Both the position numbers and the translations under genes were made by a program. From positions 1,169,957 to 1,233,956 of the forward strand of contig NMRA01000030.1 in assembly GCA_002633005.1 (NCBI GenBank): 64,000 nucleotides of DNA, written 5' to 3'. Below the pieces are notes generated by a model. It searched no databases. It was not told where the DNA came from and saw only the letters and a list, made by a program, of their open reading frames with translations. How positions within the stretch are numbered: position 1 is the first letter of the stretch; each line of letters begins with the position of its first letter. The stretch is from Phoronis australis (Eukaryota > Animalia > Phoronida). Of this stretch, positions 15,801-64,000 are shown piece by piece.

Positions 15801-18800
15801 CATACTCTCAGTCTATGTAAGTAGTGATATTTTAGTACTGAAATAATCATATCATGATTATAACTGGCAGTTATCAGATAGACAGGTCAGTGTGTGATGT
15901 TTCAGGAGAACGACTCACAGAATGACACTGATGATGACGATCAGAGTGAAATGTCGGCCATGTCTGGCGGTGGTCCTGATTTCAATTACATTCTTAACAT
16001 GCCACTGTGGAGCTTGTCACGAGAACGTAAGGAAGAACTTTTGAAGAATCGCGATGCAAAGGCTCGGGAAATCGAAGTCCTGCGCAACAAGACTAACAGC
16101 GACCTCTGGAGAGAGGACCTGGATGCATTCATTGACCAGCTCCAGGTAAAGTTCAGATAGGCAGTTCGTTTTTCTTGAAAACTCAGCAGTTTTAGTTGTT
16201 TCACTGGTCACATTCAGCACTCACTGGTCCTTATTACGTAATCATTATTCTCATCTTTGTTGTTAACTTCAGGTTGTTGAAGCTCAGGAACGTGAGGAGG
16301 AGAAGGTTGGCGTCAAAATGCTGCCGTCCAAGTCTGGCAAGGGACGTCCCAAACCCAAGAAACTGGCTGTAGAGACATTGCCGTCGCCTATGGGACGGCG
16401 GGTAGAGCCACGGGTAGACGCCCTGCGGCAAAAAGCTGAGGGTGAGAAGAAAAAGGCCAAGAAGGTGAGCGGCGAGTTTAAAGGCGTTGACAAACCACTA
16501 ACAAGTTGGGTGTGTGTTAAGTATGGTATGCCAAAGTAGAAAAAGATCTAGGACACAAAGTATCTATTCAAGAATTTAAATCTCTGCAGTACCAAAAAAA
16601 CTACTCAAAACCAGAATTTATCGTGCTATGACCTATGATTTTTCTTGACGTCCAAAATTTTGCCACGCCAAGTCTGAAAATTTATCGCGCCAGGACATAA
16701 GATTTCAGGCCAAGACAAAAGTTAATGCCAGGACAAAATACATTGCCTGGAGACCATGTGGCCATCTGCAAGTACGTGACCACGAACATGTGGGTGTTAT
16801 TCACTTGAAGCTTGATGACAGAGAGAGACGGCGATCGGTTGAGTCTAGTATGTGTCATACTGAGTCATATTCAAGTCTAGTGTGTCTAAAAATACATTGG
16901 TTCTGTTGTAAAAGTTGGAAGATGCAAAAGAAATTCAACATCATTGTCTCGATAATATGACTGTTGTCGGCGAGACATTGTTGAATGCTTAGCCATTATG
17001 CACCTACCTGGTGCCGACGTTATCTTTTTGACAGAACATACCTGTAATACCTGTAGTATACCTGTCACGGACAGGATCATTGTGGATATGCTGGTGCATT
17101 ATTCCCCTCCCCAGACCATCCCCGTGACAGCAGAAGGCGCAGAACTCCAGGGCTGACGTTGCCTGTAAGCATTTGATTTGACAGCACTCGGGCACGGCTC
17201 TTCTTGTGACTCTTCGCAGCATGGCCATAAATAATACCGGCTTCGAGCAGTCGGCTGCCATCATTGAACTCAGCCAGTTGGGATGCAGTCTGCTCGAGGT
17301 TGCGTTTGCGGGCCAGCAGCTTAACGTCAGCCGAATATAAGTAGAGGGGTTGGTTGGTGGTGCATGAGCCCACGAGGTAATCTGCACGCTCATTAATCAA
17401 GACACCGGCATGGCCAGGTACGAAAGACCAGATCACTACATGATGAGGGTGGCGTGATCGGAAGACACCCCAGTTGGCTGGGAGGTTTCCAGATTGAACT
17501 TTCATCAACACTGCCATGGAATCGGTGGCAAAGATAATGGTGTGATTCTCCAGGTCTAGGAGTGACAGCTTGGTTAGGGCCCGTTGTATAGCCTCAAACT
17601 CCATCCGCGTACTGCTTGTGTATACATGGTGGCAGCCACTACCTTCCACAATGACGTTAGCACAGCGTATTTGATAACCCCATCCCACACAATTAGTTTC
17701 ACCATCGAAGGATCCATCAGTTGCTACAATGATGGCATTAATACCGCCAAGATCACGCCATTGCTGACAGCATAATGACAGAACAATGCATGTGGATGGT
17801 CAAATGGTATCCTGGCATGAAAAAAATTCGATCCTGATGTATTTAATTTTCTGTCCAGGCGTGTTAAATTTTTTATCGTGACTTGATAAATTTGAGTCCT
17901 GGCATCATAAAAGATTGGTTCAGACGTGATCAATTGCAAGTGTTGACATGATCAATTATAAGTCCTGACGTGATAAATTTTGGATACTGACCAAACGAAT
18001 TTTGTTCTCGGGTTGTTTTCTTTTTGGGTCTTACACAGTCGAAATAATATTTTGGACTGTTTTTAATTGTTGAGTAAGTGAAAATTCTGGTTTTGATTTT
18101 GTTTTGTTGATCATGCACAGTAAAATTAATGTTTTGACCTGTTTTTTTACTCTTGAATTGAAAATTCATATCGGGTAATTTTCCCGCTTTGGCCTTCCAT
18201 AGTAGTGTAAATACTCCAGCACCTGAATTAGAGTAAGGATGTAAAGTCGTGCTGGGAATTTTTTAATACATGCTCACACAAATCTCGGTGCACTGCTACG
18301 GGAATCATTCATTTTCATTAATTACTATTAATCAAAGTTCAATGTAAATAAAGATCATTTTGGTATGCAATACTTACAAGTCAGAAGTATGCTGATAAAA
18401 TATTTGACCCAAGTGTAACCTAATCTGTAGGGTACACTTGAGTACTGATTACTTATCTTTGGCCTAAAACAAAAACCTAAATAATTGGTGACACTGTGTT
18501 TCATTTGTTTTCTTTATAACTTTGTCTCATCCAAAGTATTCCTGGGTGCCCTTTATAGTATTTAGGAAATACCATAATTCTTCAACTTTTGACTACACTG
18601 TCTTGGCCTTTTGGAAATGTCTGGTGACATGACATGTATTACCTGATTGCTGGTTTTTCAAACCATGTTTGACCCAAGCTGTCCTGGTCCAAAGTCCCCG
18701 TTTTGTCTAATACACATTTCATACACACTCAGTTATGTGCGTGAAAGCATATTTTTTTCATTTATGGGTGTTTTTGACTATCTCCCAAACCCCGGGATGG

Positions 18801-24800: not shown

Positions 24801-27800
24801 ATCCGTCTACATGTGAAAAAAGTACTCCTATTGGCACACAGCAATGGACCCTGTGGACTGATGTGACGTGTTTTCGAAGATAGCTGAAGTTGAAACTTTT
24901 CTGGTCTCAAAATTTTGTGGGAAAGTGGGAACATGTTTAAAACGAATGACAGAAGAAAATGGGGTATGAAATAAAAAGAAATGTGGTTTATATGGAAACT
25001 TTATTAACAGTCAACACATGTGTATACATATTAACTACAACTGAATAGGCGTGAACTAATCTCTTTAAGGGTGTGTGTGGATGGGCAATATGTGATGTAT
25101 AGCCATTAAGGGTGTGTTTGGATGGGCGGTAAGTGGTGTGTAGCCATTAAGATTGTGTATGGATGGGCAGTAATTGGTGTGTAGCCATTAAGGGTGTGTT
25201 TGGATGGGCAGTATGTGGTGTGTGGCCTTTACGGTTGTGTATGGATGGGCAGTAATTGGTGTGTAGCCATTAAGGGTGTGTTTGGATGGGCAGTATGTGG
25301 TGGGTAGCCATTAAGGGTTTGTTTGGATGGGCAGTAATTTGTGGGTAGCCATTAGGGTGTGTATGGATGGGTTTAATTGGTGTGTAGCCATGCAGTTCAG
25401 CTTTTTGAGAACAGTATTTGTTGTAGTCAAAGCAGAAAGGGCAGTTTGATGTTTTGAATGAAGATGAGTTTGGTGCATTGTCAAGCAATTCGATGTTTGT
25501 GTGCTTAGGCAAAAGCCTGATGTCAGAGACTTGCAGATTGTGAGGACTTTTGTCATTAGATGCCCCAGCCAGGTAATCTCCTCTTTTGTTCACTTGGACG
25601 CGGGCATGACCAGGCACATATGTCCACACCACAGCCCGGGATGGATGATTGGCATGGAAAATGGGCCAGCAAAAGGTCAGGAATGTAGAGCCAGGTCAAG
25701 CACATTGTAAGAAGTGTAGAGCAATGTGTAGCATACTGCAGTTGAATGTGAAGTTATGTCAAGCATATTTTTAGGAATGTAATCCTTTTCTATCCCTGTT
25801 GTGTCGTCCTTCACCAGGATCAAATGAAGAACGAAAAACACAGCTACATGTTACCTGCGGCTCAGTCTGTAATAATACTGTAGAAGACTAAGACTGTGTG
25901 CTGAAATAAAGGTCTATAGAACTTTGACCATCTTTATTGTCATTAAGGTGTCTGTTATTGTTATTACTGTATAACTGTCCTAGTTTTATACCATTTCTTG
26001 CTTATCCAATTGTTGTTCATACTTGAAATAAAAAGAAACATTCTGTGCAACATTCTACCTGTAACTGTCCCGGGTATTTTCGCTATTTTTCCTTTATTTA
26101 GAATTGTCTTTCCAGACTACATGTAGTCATTGACTTAGGTCTCTTTGAGGTGTGTCACCTTTGTTAGCCACACAGTAATAATTATTTAAGTCTTGTACGT
26201 GGCCATACTCGTATGTTCCTAGAGTGTTAGATAGAATGGCATTAGAAACATTATAATTTACTGAATAGGTAGTGGTATTATTGTCTCCCCAGCTGGTCCT
26301 AAGAAGGCAGTTAGACAGACCAAGCTGGACTTCTCATCAGTTCCAAAGAAGAAGATTACTCCAAAGAAGAAGAAGAAGAAGACTAATCCATGGGACAGTG
26401 AGAGTGACGATGATATGAGCGAGGACGACTTGTCTGACGCAGAGCCTGTTGTCATACCTCGTGAGCGTGGCCCCCGAAGGGCAGCAGGTATGTTGCGCTT
26501 GATTAGCTATTAAGACGCACTGTATATAAAAACCACTAAATTTTCAAAAAATCAGTCTATTCGTCAAAATTCAAAACAGTTTTATTTTTTGTATCCCAAT
26601 AAAAATCTAAATGCCACATTTTGTGCACTCAATGACCCCTAATTTCGCCGGTGAAGCATTAGACCGTAATTGGTCATATTAGCTGTCTCCAAAATTTTAT
26701 GTTTTCAACATCGAAAATAAGTAACTTACAAAATGGATTGAAATTTGGGCTTTGGTGCCTGGAATAACCAATGTATACTCTGCATAATTATTTCGTGTTT
26801 ATTCAAATTTGACATCAATATGCTCAACAAGGAAGATAATCCACAGACCACTTTGCTAATTTTAGCAGCTGTTTTATTTGTGACCTCTTACCACCGTATG
26901 GCACCTTGTAGCTTTATGTAATTTTTTGAACATACAACTGAAGTGTTAAGGTAGGTGGATACACAAAAAAATAATATTGACTTTTTTACATTTTTATATC
27001 ATCCTAATCTTTAATTATTGATGCATAGTATACTGAAGAAAAATAAAATCATTCTGAAATCCAAAGTTGTTTTTTTAATTATATTTGACCAAGTTTCAGT
27101 AAGTCATATGGCTTGAGTGCTCACCAGCTCAGTGACTGACAAGTGGGGCGGAGCTCATACCAGGACACTAGCTCTTATCTAACCCTGTCAACAAACATTG
27201 CGTAACCGGGCAATCGAGAGGGCTGTACCAGCTGATATTGATGTTGTAGCAAGGCCAAGAATAAAATAATTCTATTTTTGACCATGTGGAAGTTGGTGGT
27301 GAAATGGTGAACTAGCTCTTGTTCTGAGCCTGAGCCTGTTTGTCCATCTTCAAATAATAAGTTGAGTACGCAAGTCCTACCGAAGCCATCACTGCACTCA
27401 GCTTGAGGAGTAGGCGCAGAAATTGTGCGTGTGCAAAAGAAGTGAAAGGTGAGGTGTCTTGCGAGAGGACGGTGAGCGTCGACGTGGGTGGTGTTGCACG
27501 GTTCGATGAGAGTGCATGTACGCGCTGTGAAGACACGCCGGGCGGGCGAGACATGGACAACTACATGCCGTCAGAGTAGAGTTTTGGAGATAAACTGTGC
27601 TTCTGTGCTAGGAACGCGCCATGGAGAAACTAGGCTCCCAAACTCGGAGGATTTTTTAACTGAAAGTGCTATTTTCTCATCCCAAAGTCCATTCGGTCAA
27701 AATGTTGGCGGTACAGGCATGTAAAAATGTTGAACCATTACAATGAAAGTAGTTCTTTATCCTCGTCGCCAATATTGTTATGTAGACAGTACTGCGGTGA

Positions 27801-46823: not shown

Positions 46824-47544
46824 CCGGAATAGCAAACAATTCGACTATGTTCGCGTAAGGCTACTGCTAACAGAAACTCGATGAAAAAGAACTAGACAAC
46901 TAATCTTGCTAACACAACCAGCAATGTATGTATTATATTTCAAACCCTTGATTTCCCCATTGATCACCCTTTAATGGGTGCTTAAACCTATACTTTTCGT
47001 CATAAATTTTCCTTCACCATATGGCGACCGGGACCAGACGTTGGGGAGATAGATCCCAATTTTGTGTGAAAGCCGGGGCCTGGTGTGTCAAAAATCATAG
47101 CGACAAGGATACATCCGAAGTCAAAGCATGTAAATTACAATGTAACTGAAAACCTTCAGTTCAATAACGAAGACCCACCCGCATCAGTGACGTCTAATGG
47201 GTTACATGAAGAGGATTTCTAATCACAGGAACATTTGCATTAGAAAATATGACAATTGCACACCGATTGCGTGTATTAGCCTTCATGATTTGTTTATTTA
47301 GATATGCAGGCTCCCTGTAACGACAAGAAAACATTTCCGGAAACGTTTCTCAAGCTTGTTGCTGTTAATGGTCTGTTGATCGTTTCCACCCTGTACGTGC
47401 ATCTAAGTAGTCCGGGACTTGTCCTCCCAGTTTTCCGATGAAGTCTTATAAGGCACGACGCGTCTATTGCCGTTACAAACGGAGGCGTGGAGATGCTAGA
47501 GTGGCGGCACCGTAGTTTAAGTTAAGGTCAGCGCAATCTGCACA

Positions 47545-47673
47545 TCACGTGCTTCTAGCAAAGCTTAGGTTAAGGTTCTCACAAGTATCTTCAATGGTGT
47601 CGCCGACGGAATTTGGCCCAAAATAAAATATCTTTACGCCGTCGCAGGCGCCACGTAACATCATGTTTATCAC
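47545..47673 (-). CDS. NOX5-like last exon (VINMMLRGACDGVKIFYFGPNSVGDTIEDTCENLNLSFARST*)
   Basis: cttacag acceptor; 42 aa plus TGA, aligns without gaps to the last ~43 aa of NOX5. Confidence 0.75.
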   Translation of the reverse strand: MINMMLRGACDGVKIFYFGPNSVGDTIEDTCENLNLSFARST

Positions 47674-50600
47674 CTGTAAGAATATGGCTGTACTGTCTGT
47701 CAAGTAAACTTTTCAAGGACACTGGCCAAATAGATATTGAACCGTTCTAAAAGATGACCAGTTTGACCGTTAATTGACTTATAGACGACTTTGGTTTTAC
47801 TTGTATGCAAACCATCTTTGAAAGTACTAAGACGACAAATACTGCTGAAACTAAATGAGGATTTTCTTGTTCGGATGGATCCCATTTTTTGCAGTATGGA
47901 TAATTTAATTACACTTGTATCATTAATTAAAGTTACCTCGGAAAAATCCGAAGAAAATTTCAACTGCACAGATTTTCAAAAAGTCTCGCAACTTAACAAC
48001 CTTCAGTTAACTCACATGTAACTTCCCAGCATGTCAAGGTTATTCTATTCTAGTATGTATTCTGCAAAGGTTAGTTGATTTTTTATTGACTGGCACGTTT
48101 ATGTAGTCGCCAAAATCGACTGTTTTGTAGACGATATTTTGACAGTTAGAAGCAAATCTTGTAAGAAATAGACGTTGTTTAAATTGAGTTAGAGACAGGC
48201 TAAACTTTCAATCAAATTTAGTCACCGGCCTCAAAACTGCGAAGTGCACCAGATTATTTTTGGTAACCTGATGTTTTGGGGAATTTTGATTATGGCTGAT
48301 GACATTTTGTCAGCTCTGTATCATTTACCTTTTCGGAAACAGCCACCACAAACACATATACCCCGTATTCCAATAATTAAAGGAGCAAGCCACCCAAAAA
48401 AAACCTACTTTGTATCAATTTAGATCGAGTAGTTCTACTCGATAACGGCACGTTCGGTTGCGTTACCTGACACCTGACGGCAGACGGATATGTTGAAATT
48501 ATCCAATGACAGGCGTCATTGGTTTCACACGCAGTCTGTTCAGCAGTTGACAACACGGGTTACTGGTGCCAGCTTATCTCTTGAATTCATCGTTTAACAC
48601 CAATAAATCATCAAACTTCAATGTAAAATCCTTAAGANACGTTACCACAGAAAGCTTGCCATTGCTATAAACTGTGTGTCAGTTTGAGCCATATCCCTCA
48701 AATTGTTTATTCAATGCAACTCTTGGAAAGTAGTTCTATCCAGTCAGTTGTGGTTTTCAGTATGGGTCTGATGTGTCTGTCTGCAATTAGCCTGGTGTTT
48801 ATTGTAGTTAGATATTGTTTATGATAAGGGCCTGAAAATTCTGAGACCAGGCGAACTTTCGTCATGGCCTACAAAGTGCGGCAGGCCAATTTACCAAGGT
48901 CCGTAGCAGGAGTTTGAGGTCTGTTCGGAGATAAATTCGAAGTATTCTTCCGTGAAATACACACAGGAGAACCTAGATTTGTGTTGTTTAGACTTGTGGA
49001 TTTTTGAGCTTTCACACAAAACGCTTGTTATCCCAGCCAGTGGCTCGGAACCCGATTAGGCCCGTCGCGGCGGGACAGACTCGTTATCCCGGCCAGTGGC
49101 TCGGACGGAACATTATCAGGCCCGTCGCGGCCGGACTGAAGACATCACGAACATAAACCAGCCAAAGTTGGAAACTGAACTTCCAGTCAAGAAAATACTA
49201 TACTGTAGTGAGCCAACGAAGTAATGTGCACGTGAATATCTTGGTGAATTAGCCACGAAACTGCAAATCTACTTACTCGGGGGCAGCGCCAAATTCAGGT
49301 TCCCCGTTGGCCACAGAACGGTCCGAGCAGAAGATGTACATTGACAATCATTATTTGAATAATGTACATGTAAATAAAGATTCCCCTAACATCTGGCCGT
49401 GGGATATAGAAAATCTAGTTATTGTTTCACAACAGTTTCTGTTAGCAAACACTGAATAAGCATGCGCTCACACGGCCTCGGTGCCCGGTCAATTACCTTT
49501 ATTGCATCTGAAGTCGGTAACGCAGCGGTGTTTTCATGGCTGGCTTCTCAAAACATTTGGATTCGCGAATACTCCAAGGGCATTACAATGAATGAGACAG
49601 ACTTTGTTTCAGTTTTATATATGCATTGGTTAGGGCGAGAATATTTCATTTTGAAACGCAGAACGTCAACAGAGTCCCGACTTCTAGACGAGAGTTCATC
49701 CGACGAAGACTTCGCAAGTGGATTGTTAAGTTTCACAGGCTAACAGTCCGAACCGGAATACAGTGATCATGAAGTACTAGAGAGGCGCCGTGAACATGCA
49801 CAGACACCGGAACGTATGGATATTTCTCTGGTAAGCCGGCATTCGTCAGACGATCACTGTCGCCACGACTGCCGGCCACAGACACGGAGATGTTTCACGG
49901 TCTCATACTTGCTATTAACAGCGTACTTTTCTTTCTTCACTACCGCGACCCACTTGCTAAGCATTTCGGACTCTCGAGGAAGTCGAAAAAACGATGTACT
50001 CGCAGCTGCATAGTTCAGACAAGCGAGAACGATGTACCGCAACATAGCATTCACTCTGCAAATAAACCACTGACGTCGCTGCGTCGTTTCTCACCTTCCT
50101 CACAGGTTAATGCGACATCTCTCGGCAAGATAAGGTCGATCGTATGCGAGGCAATGAAGATATTCACCGATTAAGGCGGTAAAAAGACTAATTAAATCAG
50201 GTGGCCTTCTCCTTTAAGGAATTGAAACAGTCCTAAACCTCACCCTCTCAATGTGTAACTTCAAAGCGTGTCCCGAATGAGATTTCCCAGGAAAGTGAAT
50301 CTCGATTATAAATCTTACTCTCCTAAATAGACAAAACTACCATTGACGCTTCCGAGATTATGTTTCGTTTACTCAATTCCGATCTGATGATGCTATTTCT
50401 CCCCGAGTTTGCTCGGATTTCGCAGCCCGCGGTAGGAACGTCGCACGTTACATTTGCACCCTCACATGAGTGATGATGGCATTACACCATTTGACACCCT
50501 AAAGGTCACAACACACCCTAAAAACAACGCGTTTAACGTGCGGGGTCTAAAAGGATCGTTTCTTTCTAATTTTTTTAAAATACGGGTACCCAAGTGTCTA

Positions 50601-53600
50601 GTGCCTTCATGTTGTTCGCCCCACTCAAACCACAAAATCTCCATGCCTATGAAGGGAGGAAAGGGAAGACGTGCATCGAGGGCACTAAACCATGAGAGTG
50701 CAAATGTTTGACGAAGTTAGTTTGTGCTTCCTCACCTTGTAATGTTTATTTTCCCAACAAAACTGGCTCTGAGTTCAACCAACTACACAGCGAGAGCATG
50801 AGCAAACAGAACATCGACAGGCGTGTCAACGATTCCCTCTATTGCCGTCTGATAACTGCGGAACAGCTCCTGGCGTAAATTTGCGTTCGCGGGAAAGGTG
50901 TTCGACTTTGTTAGTTGAGCGCGCAGAAATGTCCTGTTGCTAATTTGTCAAAAATGAGGTTTCAAGTTTCTCTGTTATTAACTACCAGAGTTGTCACCCC
51001 TTAATACCATGAAACCTGATGGCCATTCACCATCATCCTGTGGGGCTTTGACGGTAACACTGTGTTAGAATTACTATTACAACCTTCATTGAAACGGTTT
51101 AAAAAGTTCATGGTAAAATGATATTGCTTACATGACAGCATTATCGTGCAAACTTGCCTTCATGCATCAGCGAAAAAAGTTTCTATAAACGACGGTACAT
51201 ACTTCTTGAGAAAGCAACGAATTTTAATCTTATTTATTCACAAACCACCAAGGACCGTCCAATTTCAGAATGTTCAAACAAAATATGCAAATCTGTAACG
51301 AAGTAACCTACGAAATTTTTAAATTTCCCTTGCTGTTTGTGGGTTACTTCGTTACTTAAAATTAAACACAACGTTTCCATTGATTCTGACCCTGGTGTGA
51401 TGACAGATCACGTGATGCGTAGCCTAGGCTGTCGCGCGGAAACACAAACAATATAAACAATATTTGATCACGTGATATTTGGTGTATTATAAACACGTAT
51501 GGCCGAAAGAAGCGGGGGAGGGGAGGGTCACCTGCCTCCTTCAATAATTTGCAGGAGTCAGAGTTACTGTATATCGTGTGCATAGACGCAGGCGCATCGC
51601 CGCGGGGTCGAGAAAACAAAGACAGTGAAGCAGTGGGGACGTGTGAATTAAAGAACAAGGGATATTTTTTGTTGGTTACATACGACAAAATGTCGATACG
51701 TAGTCCTATAGTACGACAGAAATAGTATTTTTGAACATCGTTACACGGAGTTGTTCGAAGCAAAATCGCAGCTTCGGAAATAACTTGTTTTGAGTACGTT
51801 CCAGAGTAATAGATTCGTGATGCCTTGTTTTGTTGCAGCTGAATGACATTTACTCTACTTGCATAGGCTTTACAATCATAATTATTTTCTGACACGTTTA
51901 CAATAACTGTGGTTTTGTGTGACAAAGACAAATGCAGTATCAGCGTACCTCACTCCATCGTGGCTGACCAAGATAAATATTAGCAATCATATCATCCAGT
52001 AGTCCTAGATTGTCCCCCCCTGCAAGCTCAATCGACATTTGTAGACCAACAGCTTTCATGTCCGAGACACGTTTGGCTCCAGTCATGTAAACACGTGCGT
52101 CAAAAGCCGAATTCGTCGCATGAAGCGCCTCCAACTGAACAAGTTTAAGCTGTTTTATCAACGAAAAAATCCACTCCAGGGTTTTTCTTATTGACGTGGA
52201 CCAGATGAAGCTCACCTTGAGAAATAATAATTACGTTCTTATTGATACTCTATAATCTTGTACAGTTTCAAAAATAAGACCCCTTTGTGTGAGATGTTTC
52301 ATTTCTTGGTTTGTGCCCAGTATAAATGCAGGTTTTAGACACGACAATGCCGTTTCAATAGTTCAAAGTGTTTCTGCCAGCTGAACGGTTTTCCAAATGA
52401 TACGGTTGCGCTTATTGGTTGTCTACGGTATCTACTCCTACGTGTTTCCAGGAAAAGGAGATATGATCAGTGGCGGATCTAGGATATCACAAGGGGGGGC
52501 CCAACATTTTTGTCCGGCTGTAAACATTTGCGCAAACTGAACCACGATTGTAGATGCGCATAGCACCGAATGGGGGGAGGTCGGGAGGGGGGTTTGCCCC
52601 CCTACCGCCCAGGAAATTTTTCTGTTTTTACATCTAAAAATCAAGTATTTTCCTTGATTCCTGAAGTATTATCCAAGAAAAAAAGGCAAAAAAAATACGG
52701 AGAACGTGTCAAACAGGAAAAACTGCGTGTACCAACGAATCGAACTCACAACCTTGCACATAGAGCGCGCGTGCGTTACCACTACACCACCACGATTTCA
52801 CTACTGATTTCATACTAAGAGACCTACTTGTTTATGATCCACAGCGTTTGCGCGCGAAACCTACTTCTTTTTGTAATGCTTATTATACGTTTTGTGCCAT
52901 NNNNNNNNNNNNNNNNNNNNNNNNNNNNNNNNNNNNNNNNNNNNNNNNNNNNNNNNNNNNNNNNCTAAAACTGCACACATTATCTTTTTTCATCCGTATA
53001 ATTTTAATTACCGGGGTTAATTAATAAACTCCACATTTCCCTACGCTCTTACTGTTTTATTTTTTGCGGCAGCCAAGGGGGGGGGCGGGCCCCCTGGCCC
53101 CCCACCCTAAATCCGCCTATGTATGATCATGGGATTATGAAGGAAAGTGTGAAAACTAAAGTCTGTGCAACGATGGACAACCTATAACAAGTGTAATTGT
53201 AAACTAAATTTCACTTTTGTGCTCACTCGGTCGTTAGTGTTACTCTTTGTTTGGAATTACCTTCCTCAAAGATTCGGGCGAGTGTTTGCTTTGGTTGTTG
53301 TCGATACACTTCCTGACGAGATCTTGTATTAGTGACACGCTCGAGACGGCGTGTGCATCAACTGTGATAACAACTGCATGAATGACGCCGTTGAAGCAAA
53401 GGTCCGCCTTCTTAAAAGGACCTTCCAAGGTTATCTGAAAAAGGAATGATCTTAATAATTGAAAATGAACTTGTCAGTGAACGTCTGATCCAACCAAAAC
53501 GTAAACACAGTGTATAGAATGCGGGCAAATCCAGAGCGAGGTACGTGGGAGCCGACACCCATGCCTGCATTGCATTCCTTTAGGGAGAGTCTCGATCCCC

Positions 53601-55448
53601 ATCTTCGCTTGAGTCCAAAGCAAAACCTTGTGATCAGGGTTCTTGGCCTTTTCATGTGACCTTGCAAATAGAACCAAATTTACCTTTGCATAAATTTACA
53701 AGATTTCCTGAGATTCATTACATTTCTGATGAAATCCTGTACAAGGGTTCAAGTGAAGTTTTGATTTTGACCGCGTACTTCTATATTAATTAGGGTGCCA
53801 ACTTGTTCTTTACTAAGTTCAGAAGGGATTTCTGAGTTAGCAAAGAACTGGTGAGACAATGCTCGGTGCAGAATATGACATGCCACGATATGCCAAATTG
53901 TAAGCCCTAGTCTCCAGCAATAACAAACCGCAAGTTCTTTCGAAGTCCTGAAAAAGTCTCCAGATTAGCCAAGCAACACTGAAATCTCCTTACTTTTTTC
54001 ACATGTCTTTGGCCAGTCAAATGATGGAGTTTACCTCTATAATCGAAGTGACGGAAACCTCTTCAACCTTACCCGCTTCCGTGCAAAGACCAAATTGCCA
54101 CTACTACGCATTAGAGAGATGCTCTGTAATGACGATGCTGCCATTACGGCTAATAGCGAGGAAGCACTCCAACGTCTCATTGACTGCTTCGCTCATGTAT
54201 GCGAGGAGTTTGGCCTTACCACCAGGCTTAAGAAAACCAACGTCATGCGTCAGGATGCAGCAAGTGTACCCAAAATCACCATTGGCAGCTATACCCTCGA
54301 GATGCTAGACAAGTTGGTACTACTATCAACAGCAATCTTTCACTGGACCCTGAACTCAAGACCAAGATTGGCAAAGCCTAACAGAAAAGGCCTGGGAAAA
54401 TTGCATGCTGTTCACCAACACAAAAATGAAGGTCTACCAGGTTTACGTCCTCAGCGCTCTCTTAATCAGCAGCGAATCATGGTTCTTATACACCTGCCAT
54501 GTGCACAGACTCAATTATTTTCATATGCGCTTCCTGAGAAGGATATTTGGCATCACATTGAAGGACCATGTCTCCAAAAACAAATTTATAACCCAAGTAG
54601 GACTGCCTATTATGTACGCAAAGCTTAACCAGAGGCGCTTCCGTTGGCTTGGCCACGAAAGGCGCATGGACGATGGGAAAATACCAAATGATCTACTTTA
54701 TGGAGAGTTGGCACTGGAATCAGAGCTGCAGGAAGGCCCATGCTTCGTTATAAAGATGTTTGCAAGCGTGATCTGAAGGCGCATAACGTCACCGTCGTAG
54801 GTTGGGAAGCTGTGGCCTCCGAACGCACCAGGTGGAGGTCGACAGTGAAATCGTACATCAAAACCAGTGACCACAGGCGTTACACGGCGGCCTGTGCTGC
54901 AACTGATTAAGACCAAGCATACATCTCTGATAATTGCAACAGAACATGCCGCTACGAAATCGGGCTTTTTAGCCACATTCCAACTAATGACTGACAGAGG
55001 GACATATCCATTGTCTCTCGAGACAGATGGATGCCAACATACATGTGAGTGATGTATATCAAAGTTTGATATTTCAAGTGGAAGGAAGAAACGAGCTGGG
55101 ACGTCGTACGCAAGAAAGACTATCCCTTTGCTTACGGAAATTAATCTTGATTTGACGTGAAACACGCAAACAAGAGCAGCTTATATTTTTTCTGGGATAT
55201 TAGCGTTTTGAAGAAAGGGAAAACGTGTACAGTAGATTCTATAGGTGGACCGACCTTTTCCTCAAATCCAACTTTGTGTCTGTTGATATAGTACTCCGGC
55301 TTCAGACTATAGCTGCGATTGGCACTCCTTTGACGGTTATCGAATAGAACTTTCTCGTCTAACGGGGTCTCTGGGTCTTTTTTGCAGAAATGCGCCCAGA
55401 CCTTAGCTTCCCAGTGTCCGAACGGTCTCACGTGTAACCACAGTGTTT
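47545..55448 (-). CDS. Divergent NOX5-like NADPH oxidase dehydrogenase region, 4 exons (55448-55255, 53434-53261, 52215-51949, 47673-47545); NADPH motifs degenerate
   Basis: Spliced translation ETLWLHVRPFGHWEAKVW..K|ITLEGPF..HAVVI..SLIQDL..LRK|VSFIW..LEWIFSLIKQL..VYMTGA..DMKAVGLQM..GQPRWSE|V..VKIFYFGP..CE..F..* is colinear with the NOX5 C-terminus (DTIWLHIRSQGQW, IDGPY, HAVLI, KVDFIW, MYMT, DMKAIGLQM, GRPDW, VFFCG). GT-AG introns, phases consistent. Confidence 0.85.
48381..50213 (-). mobile_element. Kolobok-like element with TTAA TSD and a degenerate THAP, in the last NOX5-like intron
   Basis: ttaa|aggagcaagccacc ... ggtggccttctcct|ttaa; SFFRLPRESEMLSKWVAVVK..LRVCGR at 50045-49870. Confidence 0.82.
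51949..52215 (-). CDS. NOX5-like exon (VSFIW...DMKAVGLQM...GQPRWSE)
   Basis: tctcaag acceptor, gag|gtacgc donor, 267 nt. Confidence 0.87.
52468..53121. mobile_element. CAGTGGCGGATC-type hAT MITE with 6-bp TSD (tatgat), spanning an assembly gap
   Basis: cagtggcggatctagg / cctaaatccgcctatg. Confidence 0.7.
52901..52964. other. Assembly gap (N run)
   Basis: 64 Ns. Confidence 0.99.
53261..53434 (-). CDS. NOX5-like exon (ITLEGPF...HAVVITVDAHAVSSVSLIQDL...LRK)
   Basis: ctttttcag acceptor, aag|gtaatt donor, 174 nt, phase 0-0. Confidence 0.82.
53985..55045 (+). mobile_element. 5'-truncated RTE-clade (BovB-like) LINE, frameshifted, antisense in a NOX5-like intron
   Basis: RSDGNLFNLTRFRAKTK..IREMLCNDDAA..FGLT..LKKTNVM; RRFRWLGH..RMDDGKIPNDLLYGEL; RTE-type 3' end ccattgtctctcgagacagatggatgcca. 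Confidence 0.9.
55255..55448 (-). CDS. NOX5-like exon (ETLWLHVRPFGHW...VGFEEK)
   Basis: attgcag acceptor, aag|gtcggt donor; frame also stays open upstream to ATG at 55512. Confidence 0.8.
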
Positions 55449-58400
55449 CTGCAATAGTACGTAGATATACGCGAATTAGAGTCAGCAATTTGTGTTTTCG
55501 ATGGAAGCGCATAATTACGTTTTAACGCACATGCGAGTCACAATGGGGAATTTTCCTCGCAGTGTCGCTGCTGTACTAGTGGTGATTGAATTGCGCATGC
55601 GTGGCTGTCTGCATTAAACAACTGGTAAAAGATGGAATTGTTATCAAAACACGTCGTCGCGCTAAGCCTTATTACTGCTAATTTCCCTGGTGCAAGTCTT
55701 CGACAGGTGGCCACAAATTCCCAAAAGACCTAAGATTACTATATTCGTGGACAATTGCCGTCAAAAGGATCAACTAACTGACAAAAAGTGTGTGGATGCT
55801 GAAGCCCCGTGTGTGCTCTATGACTATGCAGTTCCATTCGGAAACTACACATCATTACTTGGTAAGTATTTAGCAATCAGTTTCTATCAACACTGTTCGG
55901 TGATGTTATCCCCACCAGTTACCTCACTGAATAACGGGTTTATTAAGTGGAACTAAGTGTTTCTTTTAGGAAACTCACCCGGTACTCGGATGCCGGGTAG
56001 GCTAGCAGCACATATTCATATTGTCCTGGGTGGGAGTGCTCCCAAAATGAGGTGTATGCTACGTGATGCACAGAAGTCAAGGGTGACTTTTTCACAGCAG
56101 TTTCTCTTCAAAACTATGCTGTTTCCGATAAAATTCTCGAGATGAGTGAGTTTCCTTATTTTATCAAGGACCCCACCCCCAGGACTACCAGATCAGTTAT
56201 CGAATTAATATGAATAAGCCTTAATTCAGTAAGTGTCGTAACATTGCATTGGAAAAAATTGACACCTAGAATGAATTTTACTTGTTGAGATCAGAAGCAC
56301 ACTTTAAGCGTCATGAAAAATTCACATTGTCAAATCACTTTTAGCCTGTTTCACGTATTTTAATTCAGATATTAAATAAGACTTGGATACAAAGGTTATT
56401 AGTTTCTACATATAAACATGAAGATGAAACGTCAAGTATGTTCTCCTTTACAAATGTAGTTTTATCTTGTCTTTTCTTTTACAATTTGCTAATATTTCTG
56501 TTACAGGTGAGATTAAACAACTGAAACCAACCACATGACCGTCTATTTAACCTTTGGACAAAATGAACAGCAATCCTTCAGCAATAACATGAGAGAATTG
56601 AACGTAATTCAGAAATTCAGCACTTGATATGCCAGATTATGGACTCCGTCGCAATGTTGTTTCTTTCTGTGCTTTTTCAGTTTGCCATTTGTTTTTAAAT
56701 ACACCGATAATTGTTTATTATCGAATCTTTTGCCTATCAGATTCTTATCTAGCTACAATTGACAACATACTTTTCTTACATGCAGAACTTTTGTTCATAG
56801 ACAAGTTAACACAAACCTTAAAATTGTTCAACGGTCTTCTTAAGAAAGCTCTAAAATTAATTACACACACAAACAAATCAAATACAAACAAAGGGAATAC
56901 TTCATTTTGATCGCTGCACATTTCTATAGGTCAATGGGAAAATGACAATTTGCAAGCGCATTTGTTAATCACTTCAGCTTTATCAAGAATAAGCACAAGT
57001 GCACTGCATGGGATTTTAAAACTGAAGAAATATTGTGTGACAAACTTGCCTGTTGATTAAAAAATTATTCGATCATCAAAGTGCAACATTAATGGGCTTT
57101 CTACTGACAATAAGACAATCGATGCAGTCACTGAATTTCATTTCCCCATAACGTGTACCAAATTGAAAAGTTTTTACCATTAGTATAAAGCCTTTCTTCT
57201 GAAAGGAAAAGTTAATGTCACTCAGCTTTTGGCTTTCATTTCACTGGGATCTAGTTTCAATGGCCTATAGAAGCGCTTGTAAAAAAGGTTTAGTTTCGAT
57301 ACGTGGCTTTCTTTCATGTAACCTCATTCAGCCTCAATAACATCCACAATTAGACCCTTGAAGGTAAACACAGCAGTATATCACTTCAATCGTTTTGAGC
57401 CCAAAATCAGACCCTGAATTAGACCAGAGTGTCACCAGGTCTTCTTTGGTTTCAGTCCCTCATGTTTCTTCCAGGAAAGGAAATAAGCTATTGTCCACAC
57501 ATGACTCATTGCCTATGAAAGGGCATCCTCGCCAACAAGGCTTACTTGTATAGCAGTCAGATATAGTTCCTCTGAATACACAGACAGTCCACTGGCATAT
57601 TGTATTATGGTAAGTTAGTACTGCGATTGACATTTCTCAAGGGCCATGCAGCACTGCTGGTGAGTGAAAGTGCTGTGGGAAGAGAACGGAGTAACAAAGC
57701 TTGTCTATGATACAGCTTGAAGTGGCCTTAAAATGTCACTGAACCTGGAACAAATATTGAAATATGAATAATTAAGTGCTCCAGATTGGATCAAAAATGC
57801 TATCCCTGTTTTTCAAAAATATATGGTGATTGCTTAACAGTTTCACATAAAATTAAACAATTACTATTTTCAGAAACCAAGGGTGTATATAATAAGTAAT
57901 GCATAAAATTGTGTTTTTATTTATCATTTTTAGCTACAACAATTTTTTAAACGCATCAATCGTCTGCAAAAGTTGTTTGAGACAACTTCAAACCTTTGTT
58001 ACCCATTTTCAAGCGTTTTTAATTTTGATACTTTCAACAATTTTAAACTCCGATTACAGATTCATGGGTGTGTCAAGCATGCTCCTAGTTTAAGGCTGAG
58101 GGAACCGTTTCTCAGACTTTTAATTTTTCTTCTAATAGAATTTATGAAGACTTGGGTCATTTAAAAATGATGGATAATCTTTCTGTTGTTTAAGACTAAT
58201 TACAAATCGCAAGGCATCATCAAAAATGCAATTTTCACAAAAATGGTAGTCATTTTAATTTATAACGACTTGCAACAATTCAAGGTATGAGTTAAGACTA
58301 TTCAGTCACGGTGAATTCAGAAAATGTAATATATTTTCACAGGTTTACACTTGATAGAAAAACAGTACTCATGAAATAAACTTGAAGGAACTTCATGAAG

Positions 58401-59114
58401 GTTAAGAATTACCTCATCCTGCTCTTTCCCCCAAACATGTATTACCTGTTATTTCCCCACACATTCGGTTGCACCAAATATTACAACCTCAACCCCCATG
58501 CCCCATGTAAATTAACAAAATGACTTACATACCTTTGTTTAAAAATAGCTGCTCCTTTTCAAAGGCTTTGTTCGTTGTCTCCAATATTGAAAGTAGGCTT
58601 TGGCAACAGATCTGCACTGGATGGGAAGATCTTGTTGGTTAGCTGCAGTAAAATGCTTAAAAACCAATTTTTGTCCATTCAGGGACGGTGCAGAAGCGAT
58701 GCATATCTCCTCTGCACGGTACAAGCCCTAAAACCTAAGAACAAAGGTTGCGTGAAACAGACGTGATAGATTTCCATTTCAACGTGTAATAGATTTCCAG
58801 AAGACATATGATAGGGAGTAAACAAATAGTCTAATGCAATGGATATTTGTCATGTACGCTTTGCCATTGGGCTTGGTTTGCAATCTTAACTCATTAACCT
58901 GTATCGAGTTGACAGCATAAACATTCAGCATTGATTGATGTAACTGTCACTGATAAACTGTAACGAATCATTCCAAACAACAATAATGCTTTGATGTACG
59001 AAAAGATAACGATTGCTACGTCAAGTATCGCAACACATATTACAACAAACAAAGAATAGCCCGACTGGCGACTGCCGCGAAGTCGACATCGGCGAGTACC
59101 TCAGTTAAAAAGCA

Positions 59115-59350
59115 TCAGTAGAATAATCATGGAATAATCGTTAAAATAATCACAAACCTTACCTTTGTATAAGGTCGTGCTTACTTCCTCTCATAGAAGC
59201 ACCCTTTTCACGCAATCTCAGATTCAGTTGGCACGGCTGCAAACCATTTCACCATGTATTTAAAGGGCTCGCGAAATCGAGGCTATTAATCTATCACCAC
59301 TAGTACGCGCGCACCCTCTAGTTATTGCAGATTTTCCGAATAGCCTCATT
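59115..59350 (+). repeat. Interspersed repeat end shared with 14232-14467
   Basis: High-identity match. Confidence 0.85.
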
Positions 59351-62305
59351 GCCTCGGCGTGAAAACAACACCCAAAATCGGTCGCGGAGCTGGAGTGCAT
59401 TGCATAGTGCGTCTCCAAAAAGTATGCGTGCTCACATCACAAAAGATACAGATGCAGGAACATGAGAGCGGCATATGTGCGTACGTATCTTGTTCACCAG
59501 TATCAATGTACATGTAGGTTTAGATGATCAACCGAAGCCACTGTACATTTAGTCCTTCAAGGGACATATCAAACATACCAAATTCGCTGAGGAATTATTG
59601 ATTAACCTGGACCGGTAGCGCAGAAGGGGGGCTTCTTAGACCCCAGATCGAGACGTTCCCGTTTTTTTAGTCCACCAGTAGCAGAAGGTTCGCCTAACCT
59701 GCCCCTGCAACTTTCGGGCCTGTGCTGAAAACACAATCGCGCTTTCCCAATTCCCCGAGACAACATGTTGGGATGTCGCCCTCCCTTATGGCATCCTAGA
59801 TCCGCCACCGATGTTTAATAAAGTGCTAATACACCATGGTCTTCCAAGATTTTAAAACCATACGGTTCAATCTTTTCAAGGGACTTCCCATAATAGGCAA
59901 CGGGTGCAGATTCAAAATAATTTTAAAAAGAGTCCTAGGTTCAACCTCAACGATATTGTGAGAAACGCATTGACAGCTGTGGATGCAGAGTAGGCCTACG
60001 TTTTGGAAACGAGGAGGTTGAGATTTAAAACCGTTTTTAAACTTGCGCCAACTTCAAAAAAATTACTACATCTGAACTATCGGCAATCTCGGTATTGTTC
60101 GTGATATAACTATATCCTTCTGTATTTTGCCACGAAGAACTGAATTCAGACTGTAATCTTTTGCGATTTACATCTATAAGTGAGGATACACCATGTTTTA
60201 CCATTTTTGTCTTTTGTTGAAAACATTCCTTTTCAAGGAAGTGGGGCTCGTTCAACAATGATATGTAATTAATAATTGCGTTAAGTTGAACTTTGGAGAA
60301 AGACATTTTTCGAGAACTGGCGACTAATCGGATATGATTACAGTCACCAGGTCATTAGAATAGCAGATAACGAGCATGTACGAAACACGTAACAATTTGA
60401 TGTACGGAATGGGCCCCTATTTCCTAGAAGAACACTGGAATTTGAAGTTCGTTTCTTTGAAAGTGGTAGGTATGGAACAAAAACGGCCAACGTCAAAGTC
60501 AGCGACAGTGTTAAGTATGCATTTTATGTGATGTAGCAAAAGAGTAAATATACCAAATTCCCTTATCTGTCCACAGCTACGCGTGTGGTTGGCGGCAACC
60601 TGCAACAAAAAATGGCTTTTCGTTGGTTGCACAATGTCCAATCTCTGTCTTTATATATATGTTTCGGACTAAAAAACACTGATAAAATAACAAACATATT
60701 TGATTTTATCGTAACAGTGATATTTCTTTCATCTTTTTAAAAGATGTTTAAAACATGGGACTACGCTGCCACGTTTTTAAACTATTCGCTCGACCTTGTT
60801 AAATAGGCCATAGTGCCAGCTCTCCTATCTTTCACCTCCGGGGCCACTTTCTGGGGGCAACGGGAACTTTGCATTAAACCAATCTACAGCTGTTCAAAAG
60901 TCCATTTCAAATAAGTTCCCAAGAATACACTTGCAAGTTTAGTAGGAATTTTAATTTAAAAGCTGGAAAAATATAACCTCAACTAATATTTTAGTCACCA
61001 GGTGTCAGTGCAAAATGATCCAAACAGCCAATCAAATGCCCGGAAAATATTGTGTCCATACCTTTCCCCTTCAAAAGTCGTCTGCTTGGCATGAAAACAT
61101 TCACCAGAGGACAGTCAGCTGATGTTATCCTGCTGGCTTAGCTAGCTTGTTTACTGCTACTGACTACATTGGATAGCATTAATTCTTGGATGGGTGTGCA
61201 AGTAATAGGCAAATACCAAGGGTCAAGGCTCAAAAACCAGCATGCAGCAGTTAGGAATTGAGGAAAGCCAAATCAAGTGGCCACGAGTGTCATTGTACTG
61301 AAACAATTCTTGGCACATTCCTGAATCATTTCGTGTTTCGCAAAGAACAGTTTTGGGTCTGCTAAGGCTCTGCTGAAACCATGAATTATTGAACTAGTCT
61401 GCGACTTCACAATTAGACTGGCAAGATGTCTGCCCCTTGTTGCATTCATGTGTCAGCTTCTGCTCAAATTTCTTAGCTGGAATTTTCAGTTATTACCTGG
61501 CCTAAGGCTACTGCAAACAAACGTATCAACATTGAGTGCAAGAGAAGTATCATTGCTGATAAGTTTTTAAGTTTTCGTAGCTCTGAAGTACTCCGTCAAT
61601 CTTAATAAATATCCACATTCTCAAAAACTCGAGCCCCCCATTTTTAGTCTTGGTGCACGCATGCTTCTATCACAAGCAGTGTTACAGACACTTAACAGAG
61701 GTAACAAAAATTGAAAGATCTCTTAAAAAAGAAAAAAAAAACAAGTTGATGGTGGAAATAATGTTGAGCCCTCTACAAAATTAAGGAGATTGTCACTGTC
61801 AATTACATGTACATATACATTATATGTCTTGCCACCACAATAAACCATTTGCCACAAATCAAATTTCATCACAGGGGAACTTCACAAACGAAAGGAAAGT
61901 TGAAAACCTATCCCAGTTGCAAACATTCAATTGTTAATACGCCTACCTATTCTTAATTTGAAAAGGTGTCATATATGGTAAATAATCTTTATTTTATGTC
62001 ACAAAACAAAAAAATATTTTGCTTGATGAATTTGTAGTAATATTGGTCTCTGTCTCAAATGTAGTGGCAGTAGTTTTTACCTACCTGTGATTGATCCTCA
62101 CAGTGTGACTGCTTTTTATGAACTTCTACGCTTATTTTAAGATCCTTTTATGTAGAATCATGAGCAGTGATTGGAAATATAAAAATGGAAATATTGCCTG
62201 TGTTCTGTAATTTATGTATCTTGAAAATTCAAATGTTGCGCAGATTTCAGTATCTCACATTTTGAAGATTCTTGAATTGGAGTTTTTAGCAAAGCAAAAT
62301 ACTTA

Positions 62306-62796
62306 CTCTTCCAATTACGTGCTGTTTAAAACAGGAAGCGTCAAATGAAATTTTAGCTCTACGGTAAAGAAGACGCTTTCCAATTTCAAACAAAAACTAT
62401 TGCCAACATGACCATTCCTCTATTTTTCAAAGGCTGAACCACTGTATTAAGGATGATGAAAATGTTTCTATGTTTTAAAGTGTACACAACATGACTCTAG
62501 TACCTCAAAATAAATTTTATTATTATATCTTACTTGATTTCAGTGCCTTTAGTGCACAGCTCATAAAGAAACACGCAAAAATTGAAAAAAATAATAATTA
62601 TGTACAACGTCATGGGTTGAANCTCTTCCAATTACGTGCTGTTTAAAACAGGAAGCGTCAAATGAAATTTTAGCTCTACGGTAAAGAAGACGCTTTCCAA
62701 TTTCAAACAAAAACTATTGCCAACATGACCATTCCTCTATTTTTCAAAGGCTGAACCACTGTATTAAGGATGATGAAAATGTTTCTATGTTTTAAA
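62306..62796 (+). repeat. Exact 174-bp direct duplication (62306-62479 = 62623-62796) across a single N
   Basis: N at 62622 immediately precedes the second copy; probable contig or haplotype overlap. Confidence 0.9.
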
Positions 62797-63109
62797 TTGT
62801 TTGAAGGCAGCTGCACAGTGCAATCAATGCTAATAATGATGCTCATTTCTCGTAATGCTTATTTTTGTTACTGAGCACTGAGACAAAATGAAATTTCAGT
62901 TGTTGGACATACTGTGTGCTTAGGTGAAGAGCATTTTGGTTATCTATTTCAGTTAAATAGGATTACTGTAGCAAGGTGTTTAGATAAAACGGTGTTTAGG
63001 TTGTCAAAACTTTTTTAATTTAGGTAGGGTGCAGGCTTGCAGAGATATTTTTTTAACTTTGTCTTTGCCATTAAAGTTGGGCTAAAAATTTGTTTTTCCT
63101 GGTTAACTC

Positions 63110-63500
63110 ATGGAAGACATTGAACGGTTTGTATGCAAGCTGTACAGGTGTCATCAACAGTTAATAAAGCACGCCACCACATATTCAGGTTGAAATCTGT
63201 GATCTGCCTCCCCATCATCATTGTTTGCTGCTACATGCTAAAAGAGCAAACTGCCAGTGTGCCATTCAAACAGGAACGTTGCAACAGCATGTCAGTGCAC
63301 CATCTCCAGTTGCTAATGGGTGGCTTTTGGAGCGGGGTAGTCTGATGTTCCACTGGATGACTCGGCCTTCAGCCCCAGAAAATGCCATGAGAAATGTTTT
63401 TAATGGCAAGTGTAAAAGAAGTGGTTATAGTAAAAAAGGTGCTCTTGTTTGAAGTCAGGCATACCATGCTCTAAGTTGCATGAATGTCCAGACTACGTGT
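63110..63500 (+). mobile_element. Degenerate DNA-transposon ORF remnant, probably the Academ C-terminal (XPG/Cys-rich) region
   Basis: EDIERFVCKLY..VNKAR..LLLHAKRANCQ..APSPVANGW..WMTRPSAP..CK..CSCLKSGIPCS with frameshifts. Confidence 0.6.
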
Positions 63501-64000
63501 GAGCACGGTGTCTCAGTAAAAAAACAAGTTTTGATGACAATAATGATGATATAAATGATGATGGAGTGGATGAAGAAACGTAGTAAGTGTATGCTATGTT
63601 GTTAAAGAACTTTAAATTCTCACCCTTATGGAAAATATGGACAACATTTTTTTCATGCTCATGACTGACACTGCTCGGTGTGTCTCTCCCTGTGACAGTT
63701 GAGGGATAATGTTAATTAATTATGACAATTAATGAAATTGATGACAGAAAATTTGTTGCAGAAGCATTGGAAATGTATGGTGTTCACATGTAGGTTGTGA
63801 TGTCAAACCTTTATCAAGTTCCAAATGGTTAACAGTATTATAGTTCTTTTTGTAGCTCAGAGTATAGTAGTATGTTTTCTGGCCAACAGGAGGCGCTGCT
63901 AAAATGATACTTTTTCTCTTTTTTGAGCAATTTTCCAACTAATGTCATAATATTTATCACTTTCCTTGGTCAATAACTTCAAATGAACAAAACCCAATCA

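Follow-up and report, generated by a model that had tools for sequence, protein, structure and literature searches.

We studied a NOX5-like gene on the minus strand of a 64,000-nucleotide stretch of Phoronis australis DNA (hereafter, the window). The gene is transcribed, its reading frame is open and it is homologous to NOX5; its NADPH, FAD and zinc motifs are lost, and the start of its REFBD, the regulatory EF-hand-binding segment (residues 638-661 according to PMC11088703), shows excess conservation. Since the cofactor residues are replaced and the start of this calcium-sensor docking segment is kept, the product is likely a maintained non-catalytic regulator and not a working oxidase or a dead gene. 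The explanation we favor, to which we give about even chances, is that this expressed and correctly spliced NOX5-derived gene encodes a probably folded pseudo-dehydrogenase kept as an EF-hand docking platform.

Gene structure and transcription

The features of the gene, all on the minus strand, are the following:
55449..64000, intron 5' of exon A, longer than 8.5 kb and running past the window edge (the 5' part of the gene is beyond 64000)
55255..55448, exon A, comprising the second FAD segment, in which W-L-H-V-R..G-H-W is retained, plus an INS1-type insertion of short length; junction reads
53261..53434, exon B, with the GP motif, first Rossmann strand, degenerate NADPH loop and shortened INS2; junction reads
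53342..53359, site of the NADPH loop (G-I-G-V-T-P), D-A-H-A-V-S in the alignment
53297..53308, site of the CXXC zinc/dimer motif, C-I-D-N in the alignment
51949..52215, exon C, the core of the NADPH-binding domain plus the REFBD; NOX5 homology by search
52039..52065, start of the REFBD, the best-conserved run (9 identities to the consensus), including the Asp638 equivalent
47545..47673, coding part of exon D, with the CG cysteine changed to Phe (codon 47622-47620), the terminal Glu replaced, the terminal Phe absent, and TGA
47293..47544, likely 3' UTR, with a putative end near AATAAA at 47298

Each of the four exons (55448-55255, 53434-53261, 52215-51949 and 47673-47545) is preceded by an AG acceptor, and the intervening introns, of 1820, 1045 and 4275 nt, are GT..AG. 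The joined exons gave 254 codons open in one frame down to the TGA at 47547-47545; the remaining frames contained 16 and 19 stops. No stops, frameshifts or broken splice sites were found across these codons and introns, and the 10 codons upstream of exon A, read from RNA, were likewise without stop or frameshift. The four minus-strand exons with about 250 uninterrupted codons that had been proposed from the DNA alone were therefore recovered. The part of the gene in the window covers the dehydrogenase domain; the haem domain and any EF-hands lie beyond 64000. That the gene extends upstream past the window, and that its FAD motif and CXXC site are also changed, had been overlooked in the original prediction.

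Stranded RNA reads spanned all three introns in two of three raw-read runs (X1 and X2), all on one strand and at the exact coordinates at which junction reads had been proposed as a check: 13 and 19 reads for 47673/51949, 18 and 14 for 52215/53261, and 13 and 12 for 53434/55255, in X1 and X2, respectively. Run X3 had 0 reads for the three junctions and no exon reads. Strand-specific depth in the bin 47101-47750 in X1 and X2 covered the region of the likely 3' UTR. At the other end, 16 X1 reads, all agreeing on one sequence, departed from the window sequence at 55451 and carried the reading frame on into an additional exon beyond the window edge, where the altered FAD motif lies; an 18-letter piece of the sequence joined to exon A was not found in the window with up to 3 mismatches allowed, and tblastn of 12 NOX5 proteins against the window above 55455 gave no convincing match. 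A NOX linker seen by eye at about 56100-55980, in mixed frames, was rejected because of this lack of a tblastn match and because the reads link exon A to sequence outside the window. Two read joints, 57742-59161 and 57672-58533, were not assigned to the gene, since the first also occurred in the exon-less X3 and both lie in multi-copy sequence. The reads also showed two coding variants in the gene, of which one is non-synonymous, a Gly-to-Arg change present in 8/26 and 16/32 reads and located in a variable loop.

Relationship to NOX5

Searched against PDB sequences, exon C matched human NOX5 (E 1.2e-7, the best real match) and the cyanobacterial NOX5 dehydrogenase domain (E 1e-5), and rows up to E 10 included neither NOX2 nor DUOX; a designed repeat protein in the top row was dismissed, because no one stretch of it reached significance. 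For exon B and exon D, each searched by itself, there was no PDB sequence match. A search of representative sequences with exon C returned 85 matches, the named ones mostly NOX5-like and none above 40% identity. The profile score of the gene was 97 bits, and its identity to canonical NOX5s was 22-29%, versus a mean of 56% among the canonical rows. Homologue fragments suggest that both boundaries of exon C fall at intron positions shared with NOX5. These comparisons with solved structures and homologues argue that the gene is NOX5-type by descent, with an FNR-type dehydrogenase domain closest to NOX5.

In Pfam searches of single exons, all scored under the cut-offs: exon C matched NAD_binding_6 below threshold (E 0.13), and A, B and D matched nothing. 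Orthologues were found in 0/69 candidates for exon C, in 0/11 for exon B and in 0/220 metagenome contigs, and the ESM Atlas had no match at 0.9 or above. The gene could not be placed in a tree, its branch being too long. For Top2, the best named identities were 81% (annelid) and 79% (oyster) on one exon, and about 71% across all the exons that matched, which points to an invertebrate animal and no narrower taxon. An AlphaFold model of exon C alone had a pLDDT of 70.7 and a pTM of 0.46; Foldseek with this domain fragment, which is uninformative as such, gave nothing at E 0.001 and human NOX5 first at E 2.4.

Altered cofactor and dimer motifs

The replaced motif readings on which the original prediction was built were all present in the translation or alignment. 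The GxGxxP loop, with all its glycines and its proline changed, is canonical in 22 of the 24 covered homologues, and more than one loop change was seen in 0/24. The CG motif has Phe in place of Cys, and the C-terminal E-x-F has Ser for Glu and no Phe. In the HPFT FAD motif Phe-Thr became Leu-Val, changes conservative in size (hand-translated from the consensus of 16 reads, the His codon being outside the reads); the second FAD segment retains its His, Arg, Gly and Trp. The CXXC zinc/dimer site in INS2, found in 25/25 covered homologues, is left with one Cys, and the length of INS2 is reduced by about 9 residues. Overall, 26/64 near-invariant columns are kept, versus 59-64 in full-length canonical rows. 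Substitutions in the NADPH motifs were more radical than elsewhere (BLOSUM -1.4 versus +0.2, P 0.005), and the excess of losses at motif positions over the remaining conserved ones was not significant (kept 2/10 versus 24/54, P 0.14).

In the known enzymes, one substitution at a corresponding position is enough to remove activity: NOX2 T341K, P415H/L, C537R and E568K are reported as inactive, T341K by preventing FAD incorporation (PMC4550764), and human NOX5 P549H is reported to make no superoxide (PMC7394750). From this analogy we infer, on good grounds, that the NOX5-like protein would be unable to bind NADPH.

Selection and the REFBD segment

In simulations of neutral decay to the 26/64 level the mean was 9.3 stops, and stop-free runs were 0/3000. 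The changed conserved residues were more conservative than neutral (P 0.001), and 13/15 changed hydrophobic positions were still hydrophobic (P 0.003); the substitution pattern of the gene differed from the neutral one expected of a pseudogene. Fourfold-site GC did not differ from that of the introns (P 0.15). Because stops arose in 3000/3000 neutral simulations and the core changes are conservative, selection likely keeps a folded protein, and the Rossmann fold is inferred to remain under selection. Together with the spliced stranded transcripts and the open frame, these conservative changes support the earlier proposal of a maintained protein in place of an ordinary pseudogene.

The best-kept stretch of the gene was the REFBD start, where 11/13 positions are identical (P 0.004 over all windows) and 9 identities follow one another (P 0.002, again over all windows). 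The original prediction had noted that this stretch (DMKAVGLQ) was kept, which held, and had counted it among the structural segments; it is more than structural, being part of the known regulatory segment. The first conserved REFBD Asp (the Asp638 equivalent) and the following helix are kept, and the second (human D658) aligns to Gly; cyanobacterial mutants equivalent to this second Asp lose calcium activation (PMC7317449). A REFBD peptide supplied in trans is reported to reduce NOX5 activity (PMC11088703). The conserved run could also stem from gene conversion over a short tract, with a canonical paralogue as donor.

In the mechanism we propose, the cofactor-site losses would, by analogy with the human NOX2 and NOX5 mutants, preclude hydride transfer and superoxide formation, and the REFBD helix would still dock an EF-hand domain. 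If this domain belongs to the protein itself, the result would be a calcium switch of a non-redox kind; if it belongs to a putative canonical NOX5, the protein would be a decoy that damps oxidase output.

Alternative explanations

The protein might be a half-enzyme with its haems and perhaps FAD kept, which, like STEAP1, would carry electrons across the membrane from another donor, either a separate reductase or reduced flavin. The four residues kept in the second FAD segment and the size-conservative changes in the first are consistent with this, as is the report (PMC10659578) that STEAP1 takes cytochrome b5 reductase or reduced FAD as a donor. The Thr of the FAD motif, however, is now Val at the position of the NOX2 T341K block to FAD incorporation (PMC4550764), complementation in trans between NOX5 subunits is reported to have failed (PMC7394750), and the conservation of the REFBD would be left unexplained, with the haem domain outside the window; we consider a half-enzyme unlikely. 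The dominant-negative NOX partner put forward in the original prediction would use the dimer interface of the dehydrogenase domain to assemble with canonical NOX5. Earlier work cited in PMC7394750 describes a dominant-negative effect of inactive NOX5 variants, PMC7394750 itself shows them to blunt the haem response, and the fold of the Phoronis protein appears kept. This idea lost ground because the CXXC zinc site that stabilizes the NOX5 dimer is lost (PMC11088703, where C568S or C571S destabilize the human dimer); the shortened INS2 and the low identity to canonical NOX5s also weigh against such a subunit, and we rate it as quite unlikely.

A young pseudogene, formerly constrained, which lost its function recently and is still transcribed, would account for the failure of every search to find an orthologue, the segregating Gly-to-Arg variant, the intron-like fourfold-site GC and the silence of X3. 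Against it stand the exact splicing and the 254 plus 10 codons free of stops and frameshifts; moreover, deep conservative divergence needs long purifying selection after motif loss began, and the Gly-to-Arg variant sits in a variable loop. We regard this explanation as decidedly improbable. There is very little chance that the protein is a highly divergent active oxidoreductase on NADH or another soluble substrate. Its substitutions are compatible with the fold, and an acidic residue in the phosphate loop can shift nucleotide preference in other folds, but the loop glycines and proline, the cysteine and the terminal Glu and Phe changed together, and no covered homologue shares such a multiply changed loop.

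Comparison with known systems

NOX enzymes are usually regarded as dedicated ROS producers. If our reading is true, a naturally maintained cofactor-free NOX5 would put the family among those with pseudoenzyme regulators, would separate calcium/EF-hand docking from catalysis and would be a natural reagent for REFBD function. A gene like this one would be dropped from NOX surveys, whose filters require domains to be intact and haem ligands to be present, as described in PMC9524095.

Human NOX5 beta (PDB 6sz5, 8u85-8u87) and invertebrate NOX5 have in common with the Phoronis gene a collinear dehydrogenase domain, the NOX5-specific INS2 and REFBD/INS3 regions and, apparently, intron positions; they differ from it in the NADPH loop, CG Cys, E-x-F, FAD Phe/Thr, CXXC and second REFBD Asp, all replaced in the Phoronis gene. 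The dead NOX variants, whether engineered or causing disease (T341K, P415H, C537R and E568K of NOX2 in X+ CGD, which are inactive, and P549H of NOX5), are altered at the same positions, but each is a single lesion in one gene, whereas the Phoronis gene is a separate paralogue, probably maintained in nature, in which every one of the sites has changed. Another ferric-reductase-superfamily paralogue, STEAP1, is unable to use NADPH by itself, as predicted for the Phoronis product; it belongs to another branch and lacks the oxidoreductase domain, while the Phoronis gene retains a degenerate NOX-type domain.

It is possible, though doubtful, that animals evolved NOX5 pseudoenzymes in which the redox cofactors are gone and the EF-hand-docking helix is kept as a calcium switch or decoy, with horseshoe-crab paralogues as an independent case at an earlier stage. 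These are XP_013789730.1 (Limulus, P0026) and XP_076352769.1 (Tachypleus, P0002), NOX5 paralogues with altered NADPH-site residues and an intact REFBD. They are far less diverged than the Phoronis gene and keep the CXXC and CG motifs; the greater part of the haem domain is missing from their gene models, perhaps through a gap in the annotation. Both horseshoe-crab species share a change of the loop Gly to Glu and of two Arg to Gln.

Gene structure and expression

The four minus-strand exons of the original prediction were present in the window:
55448-55255, minus strand: exon A
53434-53261, minus strand: exon B
52215-51949, minus strand: exon C
47673-47545, minus strand: exon D

The introns between them were GT..AG (1820, 1045 and 4275 nt), and the joined exons gave 254 codons followed by a stop codon (47547-47545), against 16 and 19 stops in the remaining two frames. 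The three internal junctions were in phase 0 and the upstream one in phase 1. A run of 64 N (52901-52964) sat in intron 2 and single N occurred at 48638 and 62622; the exons contained none.

RNA data comprised about 18-19% of each of three raw-read runs under one species label (X1, X2 and X3), plus a contig run (X4). All three predicted joints were crossed by reads in X1 and X2: 13 and 12, respectively, for the first intron, 18 and 14 for the middle one and, among the joints listed, 13 and 19 for the last. Every junction read had its first mate on the plus strand, i.e., minus-strand RNA in a usual stranded library. X3 gave zero junction reads for these introns and almost no exon depth, and X4 had none of the joints; thus, expression is modest and varies by sample. 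At least 16 X1 reads ran beyond the exon A acceptor into one agreeing 30-letter sequence, 18 letters of which matched nowhere in the window even with 3 mismatches allowed, so the intron upstream of exon A must exceed 8.5 kb. A manual in-frame translation of this sequence gave a gap-free alignment to the canonical FAD motif, P-F-T-I-S-S-A-P reading (P/T/A/S)-L-V-I-T-S-T-P. Among the read variants listed, two were coding: that at 47620 was synonymous, and that at 52020, in the loop of insertion region INS3, was a segregating Gly-to-Arg (8/26 and 16/32 reads).

Homology and divergence

Exon C matched human NOX5 residues 589-675 (E 1.2e-7) and a cyanobacterial NOX5 dehydrogenase (E 1e-5). A representatives search with the spliced peptide (the query) returned 85 matches, none exceeding 40% identity; names of the matches themselves were found for 13 of 20 looked up, mostly NOX5 or NOX5-like. 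One match, P0077, was an unrelated repeat protein. In 19 of the 57 short matches the NOX5 resemblance ended just past the query's last-intron position, a hint of shared intron sites and of a possible origin by DNA-level duplication.

The alignment set for the query comprised 22 rows, namely P0087 and the 21 of 28 matches of at least 200 aa that remained after exclusion of P0009, P0028, P0030, P0056, P0077, P0084 and P0085. Query identity to these rows was 22-29%, against a mean of 56% among themselves, and the query retained 26 of the 64 columns at least 90% invariant, versus 59-64 in full-length rows. Its branch was too long for placement in a tree. This is a real, expressed and deeply diverged NOX5 derivative which, from one species and half of the gene, qualifies neither as an active NOX5 nor as a pseudogene.

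Replacement of cofactor and dimer sites

The NADPH loop read D-A-H-A-V-S (canonical in 22/24 covered homologues), the CG motif cysteine was Phe (canonical in 25/26), the terminal Glu was Ser and the terminal Phe was missing (canonical in 22/22), and CXXC, the zinc/dimer site in INS2, was C-I-D-N (CXXC in 25/25). Two arginines of canonical NOX5, which we take to be NADPH phosphate contacts, were Ser and Gln. Motif columns were kept in 2/10 cases versus 24/54 for other conserved columns, a non-significant excess of loss (P 0.14); their changes were more radical than elsewhere (P 0.005, scoring the missing Phe as -4). Motif-loss and best-segment statistics used 21 rows, one duplicate being dropped.

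In NOX2, T341K prevents FAD from being incorporated, the P415H/L and C537R mutants have disturbed diaphorase activity, and E568K is inhibitory to the oxidase (PMC4550764); human NOX5 P549H yields no superoxide (PMC7394750), and the VXGPFG and C-terminal regions are likewise required (PMC1940245). Because the query's sites are replaced, these data argue strongly that the protein would have lost oxidase activity.

A probably maintained fold and its possible role

In 3000 neutral simulations taking canonical sequences down to 26/64 columns, stops averaged 9.3 and no run was stop-free; these ignored indels and started from homologues, not the true ancestor. Query changes at conserved columns were more conservative than simulated (P 0.001), with hydrophobicity preserved at 13/15 changed hydrophobic positions (P 0.003). 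Codon-position GC was similar to that of the DNA topoisomerase II gene (Top2) in the window. Synonymous GC3 slightly exceeded intron GC (119/241, P 0.02); fourfold-site GC was not above it (50/104, P 0.15). The open frame and conservative changes support the earlier proposal of a maintained protein, and one that does not use NADPH is very probable.

The best-conserved segment, 11/13 identities (P 0.004) with a run of 9 (P 0.002), any position being allowed, was the start of the regulatory EF-hand-binding segment (REFBD, residues 638-661 of human NOX5); gene conversion may also explain this run. REFBD connects EF-hands 3-4 with the Rossmann fold and, supplied as a peptide, has an inhibitory effect on NOX5 (PMC11088703). 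The query retained the first REFBD aspartate and had the second replaced; both are described as required for calcium activation of the cyanobacterial enzyme (PMC7317449).

Given the selected fold, radical cofactor-site loss and kept docking helix, the simplest account, to which we would give about an even chance, is a pseudo-dehydrogenase serving EF-hand binding, which would work as a calcium switch (in cis) or as a decoy (in trans). A dominant-negative heterodimer is less likely, since the query has lost the zinc site by which the NOX5 dimer is stabilised (PMC11088703). A half-enzyme like STEAP1 (PMC10659578) is a possible alternative to EF-hand binding, although PMC7394750 reports no electron passage in trans between NOX5 subunits.

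Relation to other NOX proteins

NOX5 duplications are reported from ambulacrarians and from some of the molluscs (PMC11721785), NOX genes have often duplicated within particular lineages (PMC9524095), two Duox isologues lack one haem histidine (PMC1940245) and superfamily domain variants are treated in PMC3591440. In the mostly non-subscription literature searched, no title or abstract beginning described a NOX5 paralogue that naturally has its cofactor sites replaced. Two horseshoe-crab NOX5-like models, XP_013789730.1 (P0026, Limulus) and XP_076352769.1 (P0002), 67% identical to each other, share three NADPH-site changes: Gly-to-Glu in the loop and two Arg-to-Gln. Both retain CXXC and REFBD. 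The Limulus model has EF-hands and no ferric-reductase or FAD-domain Pfam matches. On these residues the pair is a possible milder parallel to the query. It might represent another degenerate NOX5 lineage, or the gene models may be incomplete.

Neighbouring features

731-41600, plus strand: Top2, with multiple exons and in convergent orientation to the NOX5-like gene
53969-54773, plus strand: reverse-transcriptase retroelement fragment in intron 1 (RVT_1, E 2.6e-4)
17080-17799, minus strand: RNase H-coding retroelement fragment in a Top2 intron (E 4e-10)

Twelve Top2 exons were matched by tblastn, up to 16148, beyond which lay candidate Lys/Asp-rich C-terminal exons. The best named matches of Top2 indicated nothing narrower than an invertebrate animal. 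A stretch similar in appearance to the RNase H fragment (25273-25695) had no Pfam match, and the reverse-transcriptase fragment had almost no RNA reads. Minus-strand spliced joints in the long upstream intron, 57742-59161 (X1, X2 and X3) and 57672-58533 (X2), fell in multi-copy sequence and probably represent a spliced repeated-element transcript or an unrelated non-coding RNA.
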